From assembly GCF_965641715.1 (NCBI RefSeq), contig NZ_OZ282453.1: a stretch of DNA of 64,000 nt. The stretch is one strand, 5' to 3'. The notes beneath the pieces are model-generated. The model saw nothing but the letters and a program-made list of their open reading frames with translations, made no database searches and was not told the DNA's origin. Positions 1,180 to 62,041 of the stretch are shown here, piece by piece. Numbering within the stretch: the first letter of the stretch is position 1; every line of letters begins with the position of its first letter. This DNA comes from Escherichia coli. Its GTDB lineage: Bacteria; Pseudomonadota; Gammaproteobacteria; Enterobacterales; Enterobacteriaceae. The position numbers and the translations under genes are program-made.

Positions 1180-3621
1180 ATGAGCAATAACGTCAGAATC
1201 GAGGTGCTGCTGAACGCAGTCGACCGGGCAAGCCGCCCGCTTAAAGCGATTCAGAACGCCAGCAAATCCCTGTCCGGTGATATCCGCAATTCACAAAAAA
1301 GCCTGCGCGAACTTAATGCGCAGGCGTCCCGTATTGACGGATTCCGCAAAGCCAGCGCACAGCTTGCCGTGACCGGTCACTCGCTTGAGAAAGCGAAACA
1401 GGAAGCGCAAGCCCTTGTCACGCAATTTAAAAACACCGAGCGCCCGACACGTGCGCAGGCGCAGGTGCTTGAATCGGCAAAGCGTGCCGCCGACGGGCTG
1501 CAGACGAAATACAACAGCCTAACTGAGTCTGTGAAACGCCAGCAACGCGAGCTCGGTGCTGTCGGGATTAATACCCGTAATCTGGCAAATGATGAGCGGG
1601 GGCTCAAATCGCGCATCAGTGAGACGACTGCGCAGCTCAATCGGCAGCGTGAGGCACTGGCGAAAGTCAGCGCACAGCAGGCAAAGTTAAGCCGGGTGAA
1701 AGCGCGGTATCAGGCCGGTAAATCGCTTGCCGGTAGCATGGCGGCGGCTGGCGCGGCCGGTGTCGGTATTGCGACAACAGGAACCATGGCCGGGGTCAAG
1801 CTGCTGACGCCGGGTTATGAATTTGCACAGAAAAACTCAAAGCTGCAGGCAGTGCTCGGTGTCGACAAACAGTCGCCTGAAATGCAGGCGCTGCGTAAAC
1901 AAGCGCGCCAGCTCGGTGACAATACCGCTGCCTCTGCCGATGATGCGGCGGGTGCGCAGATTATCATCGCGAAAAGCGGCGGTGATGCGGCGGCCATTCA
2001 GGCGGCGACGCCGGTCACACTGAATATGGCGCTGTCCAACAAGCGCACGATGGAAGAGAACGCCGCGCTGCTGACGGGCATGAAATCCGCTTTCCAGCTC
2101 TCTAACGATAAAGTCGCGCATATTGGCGATGTTCTCTCGATGACGATGAACAAAACCGCCGCTGACTTTGACGGGATGAGCGATGCGCTGACCTATACCG
2201 CGCCGGTGGCGAAAAATGCCGGGGTGAGTATCGAAGAAACCGCCGCGATGGTGGGGGCGCTGCACGATTCTAAAATCACCGGCTCGATGGCGGGTACAGG
2301 GAGCCGTGCCGTTCTGAGTCGCCTGCAGGCGCCGACCGGTAAAGCCTACGACGCCATCAAAGAGCTCGGCATTAAAACGAGCGACAGCAAAGGCAATACG
2401 CGCCCGATATTTTCCATCCTGAAGGAAATGCAGCGCAGTTTTGAGAAAAACAATCTCGGAACGGGTCAGAAAGCCGAATACATGAAAACCATTTTCGGTG
2501 AAGAAGCCAGCTCAGCGGCCGCTGTGCTGATGGCCGCCGCATCAAACGGCAAGCTCGACCAGCTCACCGCCGCGTTTAAAGCCTCGGACGGCAAGACTGA
2601 GGAGCTGGTTAAGGTTATGCAGGATAACCTCGGCGGCGACTTTAAAGAGTTTCAGTCAGCCTATGAGGCGGTTGGCACTGACCTGTTTGATCAGCAGGAG
2701 GGCTCACTGCGTAAGCTGACGCAGACGGCCACGCAATATGTGCTCAGGCTCGACGGCTGGATCCAGAAAAATAAAGGGCTGGCGACCACCATCGGCGTGG
2801 TGGTCGGGGGTGCGCTGGCGCTGATTGGTGTAATGGGCGGGATTGGCCTTGTCGCATGGCCGGTGGTAATGGGGATTAATGCCATCATTGCGGCGGCTGG
2901 CGTGCTCGGTGTGGTTTTCAGTACGGTTGGAGGCGCGATTGTCACGGCCATTGGCGCAATCAGCCTGCCGGTGCTGGCGGTTGCCGGTGCCGTGGTGGCC
3001 GGTGCGTTGCTGATCCGTAAATACTGGGAGCCGCTCGGTGCATTTTTCTCGGGCGTGGTGGAGGGACTGAAAGCCGCCTTTGCACCGGTGGGGGACATGT
3101 TTACCCCGCTCGCGCCGGTGTTTGACGCCATCGCTGAAAAGCTGGGTGTCGTCTGCCAGTGGTTTAAAGACCTGCTTGCGCCGGTGAAAGCCACGCAGGA
3201 CACGCTCTCCAGTTGCAAAAATGTCGGCGTTACTTTTGGTCAGGCGCTGGCTGATGCGCTGATGATGCCGCTCAAGATGTTTAACAGCCTGAGCGGCAAG
3301 GTCGGCTGGCTGCTGGAGAAACTCGGCGTTATCAAAAAAGAATCCAGCGACCTCGACCAGACCGCAGCGAAAGCGAATAAGGCGTCCCCGAATGGCGGGT
3401 ATATCCCTGCGACCGCAGGTTATGGCGGGTATCAGGCGTATCAGCCGGTCACAGCGCCCGCAGGCCTGTCTTATATCGACCAGAGCAAAAGCGAATACAA
3501 CATCAACCTGCAGGGCGGAGTCGCACCGGGCAGTGACCTTGACCGCCAGCTCCGTGACGCGGTCGACAAACTTGACCGCGAGAAACGTGCGCGTCAGCGA
3601 TCCAGTATGAGACTCGACTGA
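1180..3621 (+). CDS. P2-like phage tail tape measure protein (gpT family)
   Basis: 813-aa ORF; Ala/Gln/Lys-rich N-terminal half and long Gly/Ala/Val-rich hydrophobic segment; position between E/E' and U. Confidence 0.9.
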   Translation: MSNNVRIEVLLNAVDRASRPLKAIQNASKSLSGDIRNSQKSLRELNAQASRIDGFRKASAQLAVTGHSLEKAKQEAQALVTQFKNTERPTRAQAQVLESAKRAADGLQTKYNSLTESVKRQQRELGAVGINTRNLANDERGLKSRISETTAQLNRQREALAKVSAQQAKLSRVKARYQAGKSLAGSMAAAGAAGVGIATTGTMAGVKLLTPGYEFAQKNSKLQAVLGVDKQSPEMQALRKQARQLGDNTAASADDAAGAQIIIAKSGGDAAAIQAATPVTLNMALSNKRTMEENAALLTGMKSAFQLSNDKVAHIGDVLSMTMNKTAADFDGMSDALTYTAPVAKNAGVSIEETAAMVGALHDSKITGSMAGTGSRAVLSRLQAPTGKAYDAIKELGIKTSDSKGNTRPIFSILKEMQRSFEKNNLGTGQKAEYMKTIFGEEASSAAAVLMAAASNGKLDQLTAAFKASDGKTEELVKVMQDNLGGDFKEFQSAYEAVGTDLFDQQEGSLRKLTQTATQYVLRLDGWIQKNKGLATTIGVVVGGALALIGVMGGIGLVAWPVVMGINAIIAAAGVLGVVFSTVGGAIVTAIGAISLPVLAVAGAVVAGALLIRKYWEPLGAFFSGVVEGLKAAFAPVGDMFTPLAPVFDAIAEKLGVVCQWFKDLLAPVKATQDTLSSCKNVGVTFGQALADALMMPLKMFNSLSGKVGWLLEKLGVIKKESSDLDQTAAKANKASPNGGYIPATAGYGGYQAYQPVTAPAGLSYIDQSKSEYNINLQGGVAPGSDLDRQLRDAVDKLDREKRARQRSSMRLD

Positions 3622-3634
3622 GGGAGGGATAAAA

Positions 3635-4099
3635 ATGTTAATGGGGCTGGGCTTTTTCGTGTTTGAACGGCGCACCCTGCCGCATCAGTCAATGCAGTAT
3701 TCGAAGGACTACCGCTGGGTGTCAAATGACCGTATCGGAAAACCCCCGGCTTATCAGTATCTCGGGGAGGGGGAAACCTCGCGTACCCTGTCGGGCACGC
3801 TTTACCCTGAAATCACCGGCGGGCGTCTGTCACTGATGGCCATCGAACTGATGGCCGATGAGGGGCGCGCATGGCCGCTGATTGACGGAACCGGCATGAT
3901 CCACGGGATGTATGTCATCGATAAAGTGACTCACAACCACACCGAGTTATTCAGCGACGGCGCGGCTAAAAAAATCGAGTTTAGCCTGTCGCTTAAGCGG
4001 GTGGATGAATCCCTCGCGGCCATCTACGGCGACCTGAAAACGCAGGCTGATAATCTGGTCACGTCTGCCGGTAACTGGCTCGGGGGGCTGGCGGGATGA
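3635..4099 (+). CDS. P2-like phage tail protein (gpU family)
   Basis: 154-aa ORF immediately after tape measure and overlapping gpD start by 4 nt; P2 synteny. Confidence 0.8.
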   Translation: MLMGLGFFVFERRTLPHQSMQYSKDYRWVSNDRIGKPPAYQYLGEGETSRTLSGTLYPEITGGRLSLMAIELMADEGRAWPLIDGTGMIHGMYVIDKVTHNHTELFSDGAAKKIEFSLSLKRVDESLAAIYGDLKTQADNLVTSAGNWLGGLAG

Positions 4100-6956: not shown

Positions 6957-6983
6957 AAAAAATAAGCCCGTGTAAGGGAGATT
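6957..6983. other. P2-type attachment site core (prophage attR), identical to the 3' end of cyaR
   Basis: Sequence AAAAAATAAGCCCGTGTAAGGGAGATT matches the 27-nt P2 att core as I recall it; lies at the junction between prophage cargo and the host cyaR gene. Confidence 0.55.
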
Positions 6984-7043
6984 ACACAGGCTAAGGAGGT
7001 GGTTCCTGGTACAGCTAGCATTTTATGGGTTATGTTTTTCAGC
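6957..7043 (-). ncRNA. cyaR: CyaR (RyeE) Hfq-dependent sRNA
   Basis: Minus-strand sequence GCUGAAAAACAUAACCCAUAAAAUGCUAGCUGUACCAGGAACCACCUCCUUAGCCUGUGUAAUCUCCCUUACACGGGCUUAUUUUUU matches CyaR from memory, including the CCUCCU anti-SD loop and terminator; a TGTGA CRP half-site lies about 40 nt upstream. Confidence 0.8.
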
Positions 7044-7127
7044 GAAGCGGATGATAACCTTAATAAATGCAGCTGTATGTGATCGGTTTCTAAGAATTTT
7101 CCATCCGGGAAAAATAATCGAAATTAA

Positions 7128-19500: not shown

Positions 19501-19643
19501 TCCGGCAGCGCCGAAACGGGCAGGGCGCGATAACCGATAATCCCGGCGAGTAAGATCGCCACCATCAACAGCGTGGTGGCGACAGGACGCATAATAAACA
19601 GGCGCGACGGGCCGCCTGTGCTGCTCGGGGGTAACACCTGCAT
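16521..19643 (-). CDS. mdtB: RND multidrug efflux pump subunit MdtB
   Basis: 1040-aa RND transporter. Confidence 0.95.
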
Positions 19644-20890
19644 CAGGAGCGAGCTCCTTTTTTCGCGTATTCGCGGCTGGTGGCTTTCTCTTCCGGAGTG
19701 GTGGCGCTCTGGGCTTCCACCACTTCCACTTTCGCCCCTTCGGTCAGGCGATCAATGCCGTCTGTCACCACGCGATCGCCCGCAGAAATACCTGCGCGGA
19801 TCACCACTTTCTGACTGTCCTGAATGCCCGGCGTCACCAGATGTTTGCTGACCTTGTTTTCGCTATTCAGCACCCAGACAAAATGGCCTTCATTGCCCAT
19901 TTGCAGGGCGGCGGTGGGGATCACTACGGCGTTTTGTTCGGTGTCGACTAACATGCGCGCGTTAACAAACTGATTGGGAAACAGCGCATCATCCTGATTA
20001 TTAAAGCGTGCTTTCACTTTAATCGTACCGGTAGTGGCATCGATTTGGTTATCGAGACTTAACAGCGTGCCTTCACTTAATTTCTTCGAGTTGGTGCGAT
20101 CCCAGGCTTCTACCACCAGCGGTTTTCCGGCTTTTTGCGCCTGCACAACGGTAGCGATATCGCTTTCCGGCAGGGTAAAGAGCAAATCGATAGGATGCGT
20201 CTGGGTGATCACCACAATTCCGGTGGTATCACCACTGGAGATTTGGTTACCAACATCAACCTGCTTGAGACCAACGCGACCATCGACTGGTGCGGTGATG
20301 CGGCTCCAGTCGAGTTGCAGCTGTGCGCTGGCGACGCTTGCTTCATCAGCCTTAATGGTGCCTTCGGTTTCACTGACCAGCGCTTGTTGGGCATCCAGTT
20401 CCTGACGAGATACGAGATTGGTTTTTACCAGTTGTTGATAACGCGCCAGGTCACGGCGGGCGTTGGCAAGCGTGGCTTTATCTTTTGCCAGTTGGCCCTG
20501 GGCTTGTGCTAATGCAACTTTGAACTGGCTGGGGTCAATTTCTGCCAGTAAATCGCCTGCTTTGACCTGCTGGCCTTCCTGGAAATGTAACGCCATCAAC
20601 TGACCATCTACGCGGCTGCGCACCGTAACGGTGTTAGCAGCGGTAATGGTGCCAAGCCCGGTGAGGTAACGCGGAACTGCCTGTTCTACGGCGGTCGCCG
20701 CCTGAACCGGGGCTAATGGGCCGGAACGCATACCACGGCGACCACCCGCTGGCGATTGCTGCGCTTGTTTCGTCGCCCCTGGGGCTGCACTCTGGGAGTC
20801 ATTGCGGCCTTGCCAGAACCAGAATGCGGCGATGGCGGCGATAACCACCACGATTACGATTACCCAACGGGATTTATAACTACCTTTCAT
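19643..20890 (-). CDS. mdtA: Periplasmic adaptor (membrane fusion) protein MdtA
   Basis: 415-aa product starting [26 protein letters not shown]...; ATG at 20890 inside longer track ORF 19643-21037; overlaps mdtB start by 1 nt. Confidence 0.95.
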
Positions 20891-20943
20891 CGTTAAGAGT
20901 TTCTCTTCCTGAAACGTTTCGCGGAATGATACTAGTGTAGCCA

Positions 20944-20961
20944 GCCAATAAGGGAGAAAAA
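20944..20961 (-). promoter_or_regulatory. Candidate BaeR box in the mdtA promoter
   Basis: Minus-strand TTTTTCTCCCTTATTGGC about 55-70 nt upstream of the mdtA ATG; matches the BaeR consensus TTTTTCTCCATDATTGGC (as I recall it) at about 15/18 positions. Confidence 0.5.
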
Positions 20962-21129
20962 TGGAGGAATTATGAAACACTATCGGGAATCGTCTGAATG
21001 GCGGGCACATTTGCGAGCACGCATCCAGTAATAACACAGGAAACTATTTTATCTACGCGTTAGCGATAGACTGCTTGCATGGCGAAAGGAGGTAAGCCGA
21101 CGATTTCAGCGGGACGCTGAAACGGGAAA

Positions 21130-21270
21130 GCCCCTCCCGAGGAAGGGGCCATAAATAAGGAAAGGGTCATGATGAAGATACTCATCATCGTGGTGCTCTT
21201 AGTGATTAGCTACCCAGCATACTAAGACTACCAGGGCGGGGGAACCCCCGCTCTACCCTCACTCCTGAAA
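21130..21270 (-). ncRNA. Sib-family antisense sRNA (antitoxin), copy 1; boundaries approximate
   Basis: Inferred from the Ibs/Sib architecture: Sib RNAs are about 140 nt and fully complementary to the ibs ORF on the opposite strand; ends not determinable from sequence alone. Confidence 0.4.
21169..21225 (+). CDS. Ibs-family type I toxin peptide, copy 1 (MMKILIIVVLLVISYPAY)
   Basis: 18-codon ORF with ATGATG start and hydrophobic core, hand-translated from the repeat unit; not in ORF track (below size cutoff). Confidence 0.6.
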   Translation: MMKILIIVVLLVISYPAY

Positions 21271-21457
21271 GTATGCCTTCACGTTCAGAATGTCAATCCG
21301 CAGGCTTTGCAGTCTGCGATCCTGCCAGCAAATATTCTTTGCGAGACGTTACGCAATAATCACACTTGAAACTATTTTATCCGCAAGTCAGCGATAGACT
21401 GCATACAGGGCGAAAGGAGGTAAGCCGAAGATTTCAGCGGGACGCTGAAACGGGAAA

Positions 21458-21598
21458 GCCCCTCCCGAGGAAGGGGCCTTAAATAAGGAAAGGGTCATGA
21501 TGAAGTGGATCATCATCGTGGTGCTCTTAGTTATTAGCTTGCCGGCTTACTAAGTCATCAAAGCGGGGGAAACCCCGCTCTACCCTCACTCCTGAAAG
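21458..21598 (-). ncRNA. Sib-family antisense sRNA, copy 2; boundaries approximate
   Basis: As copy 1, by repeat periodicity. Confidence 0.4.
21497..21553 (+). CDS. Ibs-family type I toxin peptide, copy 2 (MMKWIIIVVLLVISLPAY)
   Basis: 18-codon ORF at the equivalent position of repeat unit 2. Confidence 0.6.
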   Translation: MMKWIIIVVLLVISLPAY

Positions 21599-21784
21599 TA
21601 TGCCTTCACGGTCAGATTGTCAATCCGCAGGCTTTGCAGTCTGCGATCCTGCCAGCAAATATTCTTTGCGAGGCGTTACGCAATAATCACACTTGAAACT
21701 ATTTTATCCGCAAGTCAGCGATAGACTGCATACAGGGCGAAAGGAGGTAAGCCGAAGATTTCAGCGGGACGCTGAAACGGGAAA

Positions 21785-21925
21785 GCCCCTCCCGAGGAAG
21801 GGGCCTTAAATAAGGAAAGGGTCATGATGAAGCTACTCATCATCGTGGTGCTCTTAGTCATAAGCTTCCCCGCTTACTAAGACTACCAGGGCGGGGGAAC
21901 CCCCGCTCTACCCTCATTCCTGAAA
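21785..21925 (-). ncRNA. Sib-family antisense sRNA, copy 3; boundaries approximate
   Basis: As copy 1, by repeat periodicity. Confidence 0.4.
21824..21880 (+). CDS. Ibs-family type I toxin peptide, copy 3 (MMKLLIIVVLLVISFPAY)
   Basis: 18-codon ORF at the equivalent position of repeat unit 3. Confidence 0.6.
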   Translation: MMKLLIIVVLLVISFPAY

Positions 21926-22112
21926 GTATGCCTTCACGGTCAGATTGTCAATCTGCAGGCTTTGCAGTCTGCGATCCTGCCAGCAAATATTCTTTGCGAG
22001 ACGTTACGCAATAATCACACTGGAAACTATTTTATCCGCAAGTCAGCGATAGACTGCATGCATGGCGAAAGGAGGTAAGCCGACGATTTCAGCGGGATGC
22101 TGAAACGGGAAA

Positions 22113-22256
22113 GCCCCTCCCGAGGAAGGGGCCTTAAATAAGGAAAGGGTTATGATGAAGCACGTCATCATACTGGTGATACTCTTAGTGATTAGCTTCC
22201 AGGCTTACTAAGAACACCAGGGGGAGGGGGAAACCTCTCCTAACCCTCACTTCTGA
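22113..22256 (-). ncRNA. Sib-family antisense sRNA, copy 4; boundaries approximate
   Basis: As copy 1, by repeat periodicity. Confidence 0.4.
22152..22211 (+). CDS. Ibs-family type I toxin peptide, copy 4 (MMKHVIILVILLVISFQAY)
   Basis: 19-codon ORF in the most diverged, yegL-proximal repeat unit; closest to K-12 IbsA as I recall it. Confidence 0.6.
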   Translation: MMKHVIILVILLVISFQAY

Positions 22257-22430
22257 AATTATGTCACTCCGCCCTTAGTGTCAATCGACGGCTCTCCGTT
22301 CTTGCGAGGCGAATAGCAAAATTTTCTGCGCCGCCGGGCCTAATTCTGAAAGTTTCTTCGTTTGCTCTTATTTCATTATTGCAATCGGTATGATACCGGA
22401 CCTCAATAATTCTCTAAGAAAGGATTTCTT

Positions 22431-23090
22431 ATGAGCGAACAAATCACGTTTGCCACCAGCGATTTTGCCAGTAACCCGGAACCACGTTGCCCCTGCATTC
22501 TGCTGCTGGATGTATCTGGCTCGATGAGCGGCAGACCTATTAATGAACTTAACGCCGGATTGGTTACCTTTCGTGATGAACTGCTTGCTGATCCGCTGGC
22601 TTTAAAAAGAGTGGAACTCGGCATTGTGACGTTCGGCCCGGTGCATGTGGAACAACCCTTTACCAGCGCCGCTAACTTTTTCCCGCCCATCCTGTTTGCC
22701 CAGGGGGATACGCCTATGGGGGCCGCCATTACCAAAGCCCTGGATATGGTTGAAGAGAGGAAACGTGAGTACCGCGCAAATGGTATTTCGTATTATCGCC
22801 CGTGGATTTTCCTGATCACCGATGGCGCTCCAACCGATGAGTGGCAGGCTGCCGCCAACAAAGTGTTTCAGGGGGAAGAAGATAAGAAGTTTGCCTTCTT
22901 TTCCATCGGTGTTCAGGGGGCGGATATGAAGACTCTGGCACAAATCAGCGTTCGTCAGCCTTTGCCACTGCAGGGATTACAATTCCGTGAACTGTTTAGC
23001 TGGTTATCCAGTTCGCTGCGTTCGGTTTCCCGCTCCACGCCGGGAACGGAAGTTGTGCTGGAAGCGCCAAAAGGCTGGACGTCAGTGTGA
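22431..23090 (+). CDS. yegL: von Willebrand factor A (vWA) domain protein YegL (TerY-like)
   Basis: 219-aa ORF with vWA/MIDAS-type DxSxS motif ([11 protein letters not shown]); first gene of a three-gene overlapping operon. Confidence 0.9.
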
Positions 23091-23848
23091 GCTGGCGTCT
23101 GGTTTATGCATCCGCTGTTGGAACGTTGCACATTAGCGCTGATTTACCTTGTCAGGATGCCTGCCAGATGCAGGTTGCTTGGCTAAATGACCAGCAGCCA
23201 TTACTGGTGATGTTCCTTGCTGATGGCGCAGGTAGCGTTTCGCAGGGAGGAGAAGGCGCGAAGCTCGCCGTCAATGAAGCGATGGCGTTTATGGTGCAAA
23301 AAGTACAGGACGGTGAATTGGGGCTTAATGATGTTCTCGCCACAAATATGGTACTGACCATTCGTCAACGACTTTTTGCCGAGGCAGAAGCCAAAGCATT
23401 AGCAGTTCGCGATTTTGCCTGCACGTTTCTGGGATTGATTTCATCGGATAACGGCACATTGATTATGCAAATTGGCGACGGCGGTGTAGTGGTGGATTTG
23501 GGTCGTGGTCTGGAACTGCCGCTCACGCCGATGGTGGGTGAATATGCCAATATGACGCATTTCATTAGCGATGAAGATGCTGTTTCCAGACTGGAAACTT
23601 TCACCAGCACTGAGCGTGCGCATAAAGTTGCAGCATTTACGGATGGTATTCAGCGACTGGCGTTAAATATGCTGGATAATTCTCCTCATGTGCCTTTCTT
23701 TACCCCGTTTTTCAATGGACTGGCGTCAGCAACGCAGGAACAACTCGATTTATTACCTGAATTGTTAAAGCAGTTTTTGTCCAGCCCGGCGGTAAACGAG
23801 CGTACCGATGATGATAAAACGTTGGCACTGGCGCTGTGGTTACCATGA
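23087..23848 (+). CDS. yegK: PP2C-like protein phosphatase YegK
   Basis: 253-aa ORF; GTG start overlaps yegL stop (GTGA); recognised as E. coli YegK. Confidence 0.85.
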
Positions 23849-25785
23849 AACCCACTTTATATACTGCTACTGGTGAGTGCGTTACGCCAGGCCGTGAACT
23901 GGGCAAAGGCGGTGAAGGTGCGGTTTATGATATCGAGGAGTTTGCCGATAGCGTCGCCAAGATTTATCACACGCCGCCACCCGCCTTAAAACAGGACAAA
24001 CTTGCCTTTATGGCTGCGACAGCTGACGCGCAGTTGTTGAATTATGTCGCCTGGCCGCAGGCAACGCTTCACGGTGGACGAGGCGGAAAAGTTATCGGTT
24101 TTATGATGCCAAAAGTTTCTGGTAAAGAACCGATTCATATGATCTATAGCCCGGCACATCGTCGCCAGAGTTACCCTCATTGTGCGTGGGATTTTCTACT
24201 CTATGTTGCGCGCAATATTGCTTCATCTTTTGCTACGGTTCACGAGCACGGGCACGTCGTGGGTGACGTAAACCAGAACAGCTTTATGGTAGGTCGCGAC
24301 AGCAAAGTGGTGTTGATCGATAGTGACTCCTTTCAGATTAACGCCAATGGCACACTGCATTTATGCGAAGTCGGCGTGTCGCATTTTACGCCGCCAGAGC
24401 TACAAACCTTGCCATCATTTGTCGGTTTTGAACGTACCGCGAATCACGATAATTTTGGCCTTGCGTTGCTGATTTTTCACGTCTTGTTTGGTGGGCGGCA
24501 TCCTTATTCTGGTGTGCCGCTTATCTCTGATGCGGGTAATGCGCTGGAGACGGATATTGCCCATTTCCGTTATGCCTACGCGTCAGATAATCAGCGACGT
24601 GGTTTAAAACCGCCGCCACGATCTATTCCGCTGTCGATGTTACCGGGAGATGTTGAAGCCATGTTTCAGCAGGCATTCACGGAAAGTGGCGTGGCAACGG
24701 GGCGTCCGACGGCAAAAGCGTGGGTAGCGGCACTTGATTTACTACGCCAACAGTTAAAGAAATGTACCGTTTCGGCAATGCATGTTTACCCCGGTCATTT
24801 GACTGACTGCCCGTGGTGTGCGCTGGATAATCAAGGCGTTATCTATTTTATTGATCTCGGCGAAGAGGTCATTACCACCAGCGGTGATTTTGTGCTGACG
24901 AAAGTCTGGGCGATGGTGATGGCGTCAGTAGCACCGCCAGCATTGCAATTGCCATTACCCGATCATTTCCAACCGACTGGCAGGCCGCTTCCTTTAGGCC
25001 TGTTACGGCGCGAATACATCATTCTGATTGAGATCGCACTGTCAGCGTTATCGCTGTTGCTTTGCGGCCTTCAGGCAGAACCGCGTTATATTATTTTGGT
25101 TCCTGTGCTGGCGGCTATCTGGATTATTGGCAGTCTGACAAGCAAAGCTTATAAAGCAGAAATCCAGCAACGCCGTGAGGCATTTAATCGCGCGAAAATG
25201 GACTATGACCATTTAGTCAGCCAGATCCAACAGTTGGGCGGGCTGGAAGGTTTTATCGCCAAACGGACGATGCTCGAAAAAATGAAGGAAGAAATTCTCG
25301 GGTTACCGGAAGAAGAAAAACGTGCTCTGGCAGCACTTCACGACACTGCAAGGGAACGGCAGAAGCAGAAGTTTCTGGAGGGATTTTTTATTGATGCTGC
25401 CTCTATTCCCGGCGTTGGTCCTGCGCGTAAAGCGGCGTTACGGTCTTTTGGTATTGAAACAGCAGCGGATGTTACCCGTCGTGGCGTTAAGCAAGTTAAA
25501 GGGTTTGGCGACCATCTGACCCAGGCGGTTATCGACTGGAAAGCGAGCTGTGAACGCCGTTTTGTGTTCAGGCCGAACGAAGCGGTAACGCCAGCAGACA
25601 GACAGGCGGTAATGGCGAAAATGGCCGCCAAACGACATCGGCTGGAATCGGCGTTGACTGTCGGCGCGACAGAGTTGCAGCGATTCCGCCTTCATGCTCC
25701 AGCACGGACCATGCCGTTGATGGAACCGTTACGTCAGGCGGCAGAAAAACTGGCTCAGGCGCAGGCAGATTTAAGCCGCTGCTGA
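23836..25785 (+). CDS. yegI: Eukaryotic-like Ser/Thr protein kinase YegI
   Basis: 649-aa ORF (alternative ATG at about 23845); kinase-like N-terminal region, predicted TM segment mid-protein and coiled-coil C-terminal part; overlaps yegK by 13 nt. Confidence 0.9.
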   Translation: MVTMKPTLYTATGECVTPGRELGKGGEGAVYDIEEFADSVAKIYHTPPPALKQDKLAFMAATADAQLLNYVAWPQATLHGGRGGKVIGFMMPKVSGKEPIHMIYSPAHRRQSYPHCAWDFLLYVARNIASSFATVHEHGHVVGDVNQNSFMVGRDSKVVLIDSDSFQINANGTLHLCEVGVSHFTPPELQTLPSFVGFERTANHDNFGLALLIFHVLFGGRHPYSGVPLISDAGNALETDIAHFRYAYASDNQRRGLKPPPRSIPLSMLPGDVEAMFQQAFTESGVATGRPTAKAWVAALDLLRQQLKKCTVSAMHVYPGHLTDCPWCALDNQGVIYFIDLGEEVITTSGDFVLTKVWAMVMASVAPPALQLPLPDHFQPTGRPLPLGLLRREYIILIEIALSALSLLLCGLQAEPRYIILVPVLAAIWIIGSLTSKAYKAEIQQRREAFNRAKMDYDHLVSQIQQLGGLEGFIAKRTMLEKMKEEILGLPEEEKRALAALHDTARERQKQKFLEGFFIDAASIPGVGPARKAALRSFGIETAADVTRRGVKQVKGFGDHLTQAVIDWKASCERRFVFRPNEAVTPADRQAVMAKMAAKRHRLESALTVGATELQRFRLHAPARTMPLMEPLRQAAEKLAQAQADLSRC

Positions 25786-37091: not shown

Positions 37092-37540
37092 AGTAAGTAC
37101 AAAACCTATTCGTTGTATGACAAATGTCACAATTCGATCATGGATAAATCGGGGCAAAAATGCAATGTTGCAGCACTATTTATCTCATATTATTTGAGGG
37201 TAATAACCTCACATTATCCCTGAATTAAAAGTGGTAATAATAAAACATTATTTAAGAAATATCGCATGTGGAGACGCAATATTAAATATTGTCAACATAA
37301 AGAAACTCCTAAAAACCATATTGAATGACACTTAATATAATTCTTAAAAATAGCCAATTGCCGAATTGTTACCTTGCCTGCTATTCCGTTAGCTGTAACA
37401 CTTCCTCCTGCATTATTGGAGAGCCAATATTCAATTACCATAATGTCACCTTATATTCGGAAGTTAATTTCCGCAATAACCCTTTCTCATCAACGACTGT
37501 ATGTTGAGAGGGTTTTAAAAATTAAGCTAAATCAGTGTAT

Positions 37541-37571
37541 TGGTAGCTAAAAAGCCAGGGGCGGTAGCGTG
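37541..37571 (+). promoter_or_regulatory. JUMPstart element with ops site (GGCGGTAGCGTG) in the wza leader; RfaH-dependent antitermination signal
   Basis: TGGTAGCTAAAAAGCCAGGGGCGGTAGCGTG about 180 nt upstream of wza; exact match to ops consensus GGCGGTAGnnTG. Confidence 0.75.
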
Positions 37572-52020: not shown

Positions 52021-52102
52021 CGAAACCGCGGTGTAAATAACGACAAAAACAAAATTGGCCGTTTCGGTCAGGGCCAACTATTGCCTGAAAAAGGGTAACG
52101 AT

Positions 52103-56439: not shown

Positions 56440-56715
<276 letters not shown>

Positions 56716-61744: not shown

Positions 61745-62009
61745 TGAAAATCTGACCGGATGTAACGGTTGATAAGAAAATTATAACGGCAGTGAAGATT
61801 CGTGGCGAAAGTAATTTGTTGCGAATTTTCCTGCCGTTGTTTTATATAAACAATCAGAATAACAAGGAGTTAGCAATAGGATTTTAGTCAAAGTTTTCCA
61901 GGATTTTCCTTGTTTCCAGAGCGGATTGGTAAGACAATTAGCGTTTGAATTTTTCGGGTTTAGCGCGAGTGGGTAACGCTCGTCACATCGTAGGCATGCA
62001 TGCAGTGCT

Positions 62010-62041
62010 CTGGTAGCTGTAAAGCCAGGGGCGGTAGCGTG
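62010..62041 (+). promoter_or_regulatory. JUMPstart element with ops site (GGCGGTAGCGTG) upstream of the O-antigen (rfb) operon
   Basis: CTGGTAGCTGTAAAGCCAGGGGCGGTAGCGTG about 75 nt upstream of rfbB; near-duplicate of the element upstream of wza. Confidence 0.75.

Follow-up and report, generated by a model that had tools for sequence, protein, structure and literature searches.

What are the four tandem repeats that separate mdtA from yegL in an Escherichia coli chromosome, and does their number mark an expansion? In K-12, this site holds two type I toxin-antitoxin units, ibsA/sibA and ibsB/sibB (Fozo et al., 2008, as cited in PMC2943612 and PMC2887945), and both tandem duplication and strain variation of the family have already been published (Fozo et al., 2010, PMC2887945). 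A preliminary description of the 64-kb stretch of E. coli DNA analysed here (the window) had recorded four such units at the site, called the array expanded and expected each Sib RNA to repress mainly its own ibs partner. We are highly confident that the conserved mdtA-yegL site carries a true array of four paralogous Ibs/Sib type I modules in the chromosome, and that this array represents one allele of a polymorphism running from one to five units. The anatomy of the array, the family membership of its products and its population and phylogenetic distribution were all read directly from the sequences compared. The significance of the locus lies chiefly in its correct annotation, since the literature already covers how the family works and how its units are duplicated in tandem, and four-unit arrays are annotated at this place in hundreds of genomes, standard laboratory strains among them.

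Anatomy of the four-unit array

The array spans 21029..22300, with no strand assigned to it as a whole. A repeat search returned a direct-repeat family of four copies, each 300 nt long, at 21010, 21338, 21665 and 21993 (spacing 328, 327 and 328 nt), and Tandem Repeats Finder reported 21029-22263 with a period of 328, 3.8 copies, 91% matches and a score of 2015. The two programs thus agree on a period of 327-328 bp and confirm the four direct repeats of about 328 bp that had been noticed between mdtA and yegL; such a four-copy periodicity is far above chance expectation. Pairwise alignment of the four units gave between-unit identities of 81-95% across the array. Both flanking genes lie outside it. 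On the left, mdtA occupies 19643..20890 of the minus strand, with its start set by alignment to mdtA of A30 and K-12; the open frame given for it in the ORF list (19643-21037) is longer than the gene. On the right, yegL occupies 22431..23090 of the plus strand, according to the ORF list and to alignment with annotated genomes. The genes yegL, pphC and yegI follow one another with overlapping ends (22431-23090, 23087-23848 and 23836-25785), an arrangement also present in A30 and O157:H7. K-12 differs to the right of the array, where yegJ lies on the opposite strand directly 3' of pphC.

Each unit has an antisense sib gene on the minus strand, as had been supposed from the architecture of the family. 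The Rfam model SIB_RNA (RF00113), which takes in the promoter, gave four full-length matches (model positions 1-147), one antisense to each ibs ORF, at 22137-22284, 21809-21951, 21482-21623 and 21154-21296, scoring 127-142 bits where the gathering score is 56 bits. To set the ends of the RNAs, we aligned the annotated sibA, sibB and sibC RNAs of K-12 to the units and then compared the ends directly. A SibB-like RNA of about 136 nt was placed in this way at 21125..21260 in unit 1 (137.7 bits; ends via K-12 sibB), an RNA of about 135 nt at 21453..21587 in unit 2 (127.2 bits; by alignment), the SibB orthologue of about 136 nt at 21780..21915 in unit 3 (137.8 bits; alignment to K-12 SibB) and sibA of about 142 nt at 22107..22248 in unit 4 (142 bits; alignment to K-12 sibA). 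All four RNAs were predicted to adopt the published Sib fold, in which a closing stem and three internal hairpins come before the single-stranded TRD2 segment and the terminator; the z score of the fold was -3.5 in units 1 and 3, -4.3 in unit 2 and -4.0 in unit 4. The terminator hairpin of K-12, followed by UUUCCCGUUU, is present in every unit.

Promoters for the four RNAs could be located on the minus strand by comparison with K-12. Those of units 1, 2 and 3 (21261..21296, 21588..21623 and 21916..21951) consist of TTGACA, a 17-bp spacer, TACTTT and a +1 G, and the hexamers of unit 1 are those of K-12 sibB. The sibA promoter of unit 4 (22249..22284) has TTGACA, 17 bp, TAATTT and a +1 G; it shares both hexamers and the spacer with K-12 sibA and differs from it at one position, between the -10 and +1. 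A generic scan for sigma-70 promoters and terminators over 20880-22440 made no call inside the array. The scan misses the Sib sites because the -10 matches the consensus at 3 of 6 positions and the U-run of the tail UUUCCCGUUU is interrupted. We therefore rejected its null result as proof that promoters and terminators are absent, the sites being identical to those that flank the annotated K-12 sibA and sibB. All four sib genes begin with G (21260, 21587, 21915 and 22248), as in K-12 SibA and SibB. It was shown in a 2026 NAR study that Sib RNAs with a +1 G are not NAD-capped, unlike SibC, SibD and SibE (PMC12956327).

On the plus strand, the translations at 21169, 21497, 21824 and 22152 match exactly the four peptides listed in the preliminary description. 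Unit 1 encodes the IbsI-type peptide MMKILIIVVLLVISYPAY (21169..21225), identical to WP_012767742.1 of O157:H7, UTI89 and BL21, and unit 2 the IbsW-type peptide MMKWIIIVVLLVISLPAY (21497..21553), one residue (F15L) away from WP_012767741.1 with 17/18 positions identical. The peptide of unit 3, MMKLLIIVVLLVISFPAY (21824..21880), is identical to K-12 IbsB (WP_001386899.1), and that of unit 4, MMKHVIILVILLVISFQAY (22152..22211), is identical to K-12 IbsA (WP_010723109.1), so the fourth unit carries ibsA. All four ORFs are intact, 18-19 aa long, and each lies wholly inside the sib span of its own unit. Peptides shorter than 20 aa fall below the minimum length for HMM libraries and for the cluster look-up, and membership of the Ibs family was called from identity to RefSeq entries: three of the four peptides are identical to RefSeq Ibs proteins and that of unit 2 is one residue off. 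The SIB_RNA matches and the Ibs peptides together establish the repeats as Ibs/Sib type I toxin-antitoxin units, four in number. When the units were aligned with K-12 sibA/ibsA and sibB/ibsB, the same ends were obtained and the IbsA and IbsB peptides were recovered.

In unit 1, AGGA serves as the Shine-Dalgarno sequence, 7 nt ahead of the ATG; the other three units share this sequence and the start, and the start context AAGGAAAGGGTY-ATG is identical to that of K-12. Further upstream, unit 1 agrees with K-12 ibsB at every variable site. The starts of ibsC and ibsD have been mapped by primer extension, giving mRNAs of 159 and 163 nt (Han et al., 2010, PMC2943612). By analogy, the ibs transcripts of the array should begin some 60-65 nt before the ATG, with the conserved hairpin TTTCAGCGGGACGCTGAAA immediately 3' of the start. 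Inspection of the region upstream of ibs in the four units found no convincing sigma-70 hexamers; only weak ones (TTGCAT and GAnGAT) precede the expected start, and the -35-like hexamer is poorer in units 2 and 3.

In K-12, overproduction of Ibs is toxic and Sib acts as the repressor (Han et al., 2010, PMC2943612). By analogy with those experiments, transcription of both strands, toxicity of the peptides and repression by the RNAs would be expected in the window as well. The plus strand of each unit would give a weakly expressed mRNA for a hydrophobic membrane toxin of 18-19 aa, in the order IbsI-type, IbsW-type, IbsB and IbsA from mdtA to yegL, and the minus strand a constitutive Sib RNA of about 135-142 nt that covers the whole ORF and the ribosome-binding region. 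Sib would pair with the ibs mRNA through a TRD1 loop inside the ORF and through the single-stranded TRD2 segment over the ribosome-binding region, and this pairing is predicted to block translation and lead to decay of the mRNA. Tandem type I modules in one intergenic region, with copy-number differences between strains, are also known from ldr/rdl (LDR) and from zorO/orzO-zorP/orzP (PMC2887945; PMC7232551). However, these belong to unrelated toxin and RNA families, and their antitoxin RNA overlaps the 5' UTR or is divergently encoded, whereas Sib covers the whole ORF.

Pairing specificity within the array

The rule that a Sib RNA represses only its cognate ibs comes from K-12, where SibC recognises ibsC via two independent domains, TRD1 and TRD2 (Han et al., 2010, PMC2943612). 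TRD1 (+46 to +68) acts by loop pairing inside the ORF. TRD2 (+99 to +115) is single-stranded and pairs with the translation-initiation region, for which the P6 loop is needed too, and TRD1 or TRD2 alone is enough for repression (PMC2943612). In the same study, discrimination between the K-12 paralogues was found to rest on the variability of both TRD regions, with ibsA as an exception to the cognate-only rule in that non-cognate Sib RNAs repress it (PMC2943612). We mapped the SibC domains onto the four units of the window. Any two of them differ at 3-5 nt in TRD1. In TRD2 and the translation-initiation region, any two differ at 0-2 nt only; units 2 and 3 are identical there, and unit 4 departs from units 2 and 3 at one position, which would form a G:U wobble when Sib 2 or Sib 3 pairs with the ibsA mRNA. 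For comparison, K-12 SibA and SibB differ at four TRD2 positions. The expectation that each Sib represses mainly its own Ibs was extrapolated from these more diverged K-12 paralogues. It agrees with the differences in TRD1 but not with those in TRD2, where the units are hardly distinguishable.

A competing reading is that the four modules form a cross-repressing network through the shared TRD2 and translation-initiation region, in which Sib 2, 3 and 4, and probably Sib 1, would silence each other's ibs mRNAs; we consider this a serious contender, although its chances are somewhat below even. Besides the near-identity of TRD2 in any pair of units, the uninterrupted match over TRD2 extends for 34-61 nt in the window and for 6-36 nt in K-12 paralogue pairs, where it must be kept in mind that these runs include the terminator region and that the window sequences were taken to run 7-8 nt past the annotated 3' end of the K-12 RNAs. 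For Sib of unit 3 against ibsA, the wobble is the sole change in TRD2, and the sufficiency of one TRD together with the repression of ibsA by non-cognate Sib RNAs (Han et al., 2010, PMC2943612) points in the same direction. However, the P6 loop that TRD2 needs is UCCAC in unit 2 and GUAGC in unit 3, and such P6-loop differences could restore discrimination between units. Furthermore, K-12 SibD and SibE have a common run of 36 nt, reportedly without cross-reacting.

The separation of the units in TRD1 also speaks against cross-repression. The Val12 and Pro16 codons are represented by three different synonymous codons among units 1-3, and in these three units 6 of the 23 TRD1-target positions vary, compared with 36 of 336 overall (P = 0.026). 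This enrichment is suggestive, and only suggestive, of selection for discrimination; once unit 4 was included, the excess of variable positions was no longer significant. The opposite pattern was seen in the 3' third of sib, which comprises TRD2 and the terminator and corresponds to the ibs 5' UTR: in units 1-3, just 1 alignment column in 63 is variable, and on this alignment the segment is evidently homogenised across the array. Unit 4 follows suit, since its terminator and TRD2 segment, distinct in K-12 SibA, are homogenised to those of the other window units. Given a TRD2 common to tandem units, the cognate-only rule derived from the K-12 paralogues may not hold in larger arrays.

The unit-2 allele and copy number in E. 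coli

Arrays with the same locus, four units and the order I, W, L/IbsB, IbsA are annotated by RefSeq PGAP in the strains B, BL21(DE3), REL606, C and A30. Over 2.2 kb, the window is 98.7% identical to A30 and 97.0% to BL21, and a unit-by-unit comparison with A30, an independent assembly, at the same positions gave 97-100%. The closest complete E. coli genome reached 98.7% at the locus and 98.6% over 30-50 kb of the window. The window differs from these arrays mainly in unit 2 (21497-21570), where the peptide has L15 instead of F15 and about 8 further nucleotide changes are spread over the ORF 3' end and the 15 nt that follow the stop codon. Among the matches listed from 5,426 complete E. coli genomes, none covered the unit-2 segment in full length at more than 95% identity; the best was 94.6% over 131 nt, and 16 records at ≥99% are presumed to be partial. 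From these comparisons, we regard unit 2 as a new allele of a known unit and as the sole local novelty of the array.

Could one or more of the units, chiefly the divergent unit 2, be decaying and non-functional copies? Unit 2 does have the lowest Rfam score (127 bits) and two broken pairs in one helix, its allele is the one without a full-length match above 95% among the matches listed, and the -35-like hexamer upstream of ibs is worse in it and in unit 3. However, decay seems improbable in view of what the units retain: all four ORFs are intact and begin alike, behind an identical Shine-Dalgarno sequence; TTGACA, the 17-bp spacer, the -10, the +1 G and the terminator are preserved in each sib gene; and all four RNAs fold like Sib. 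The decaying-copy reading was rejected on the strength of these intact ORFs, promoters, terminators and folds. That the four-copy structure is merely a mis-expanded repeat in the assembly is scarcely credible and was likewise rejected by sequence comparison, for although tandem repeats of about 330 bp are prone to mis-assembly from short reads, the units are 5-19% apart, each with its own diagnostic sites, and the order I, W, L/IbsB, IbsA recurs across many finished genomes that are independent of one another, BL21(DE3) and REL606 among them.

As a genuine array of paralogous modules, the locus can be compared with its counterparts in other strains. Only a few of the 5,426 complete E. coli genomes lack the mdtA-yegL locus, and between 1 and 5 units per genome were seen among the rows sampled from them. 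One unit was found in Ec-042-T20-MAC, two in K-12 and UTI89, three in O157:H7, four in A30, BL21(DE3), REL606, B, C and many others, and five in SWHEFF_69. The frequencies are estimates from two systematic samples down the match ranking, of 40 and 60 rows. Arrays of two units made up 17/40 and 25/60 of the rows (about 40-42%), those of three units 17/40 and 23/60 (roughly 40%) and those of four units 3/40 and 7/60 (roughly 10%). The best 60 matches to the window locus were all four-unit arrays, all annotated in RefSeq as Ibs family toxins. Using a synthetic six-unit query to look for more than four units, we found one five-unit genome in the 60-row sample. This is SWHEFF_69 (NZ_CP055019.1), whose array at 2660-4032 lies at the same locus and has two adjacent, near-identical units that encode WP_100792650.1 twice, a likeness that indicates a very recent duplication. 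In the strains E400634, SCU-104 and PRO_A-1412-6M-A_ESBL, the annotation places transposase genes of IS421 or IS150 within the array.

The four-unit array is hence a frequent and already annotated E. coli allele, not a strain-specific novelty. The term "expanded" holds relative to K-12, whose two units, as claimed earlier, are plainly seen in the annotated mdtA-yegL locus, but it does not hold in general, for about 10% of the complete genomes have four units, B, BL21(DE3), REL606 and C among them. K-12, with its recombinant unit, is probably neither typical nor ancestral in a variation that runs from 1 to 5 units, and pipelines that annotate short ORFs and sRNAs should expect a variable number of units between mdtA and yegL.

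Direction of change and recombination

Species-representative genomes were scanned with the pattern AAGGAAAGGGTYATGATGAAG, which gave 36 loci, and none of these loci had four matches. At the mdtA-adjacent site, one Sib was found in E. albertii, E. whittamii and Escherichia sp. MOD1-EC7003, and two in Escherichia sp. E1V33 and the divergent 'E. coli E69'. Citrobacter, Kluyvera and Salmonella diarizonae likewise have a sequence beside mdtA that fits the ibs pattern. With one or two units in the outgroups, the multi-unit state is therefore taken to be an expansion within E. coli.

The two units of K-12 share much with the window: the locus and its flanking genes, the architecture, the IbsA (unit 4) and IbsB (unit 3) peptides, the Sib promoter hexamers, the +1 G and the terminators. 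In contrast to K-12, the window has two extra units proximal to mdtA, of the I and W types, and its unit 4 shares only 94-95% identity with the ibsA unit of K-12. The ibsB unit of K-12 is itself a mosaic, having the unit-1 state at every variable site 5' of the ORF and the unit-3 state within it. Such a chimera is what would be expected if units 1 and 3 of an array of four had crossed over unequally. Because of this mosaic pattern, from which the polarity was inferred, K-12 more likely represents a contraction by unequal crossing-over than the baseline. Hybrid units of similar kind were found elsewhere: the single unit of Ec-042-T20-MAC has unit-1 upstream sequence fused to ibsA, and the second unit of UTI89 has a unit-3-like ORF joined to sequence 3' of ibsA. 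We interpret the hybrids of these three strains as footprints of unequal crossing-over. The copy-number polymorphism as a whole would have been made by unequal crossing-over together with gene conversion between units.

A bolder interpretation is that the locus works as a fast-evolving 'specificity cassette', in which unequal crossing-over would make new units, selection would diversify the pairing code of TRD1, mostly by synonymous changes of codon, and gene conversion would keep TRD2 and the terminator uniform, with unit 2 as a previously unsampled specificity allele. We regard this proposal as possible but rather doubtful. If it were true, the shared TRD2 would turn the array into a partly cross-protected network, and the loss of one sib could be buffered by its neighbours.

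Other RNA elements were recognised elsewhere in the 64-kb window. The gene of the sRNA CyaR/RyeE lies at 6960-7045 on the minus strand (Rfam, 100.7 bits). A JUMPstart element is located at 37533-37571 on the plus strand, where the wza/wca colanic acid genes are annotated, and a second one at 62003-62041 on the same strand, presumably upstream of the O-antigen cluster. An algC RNA motif was found at 52049-52098 on the plus strand, and two naRNA4 (REP-derived) elements at 56488-56558 and 56584-56654 on the minus strand.
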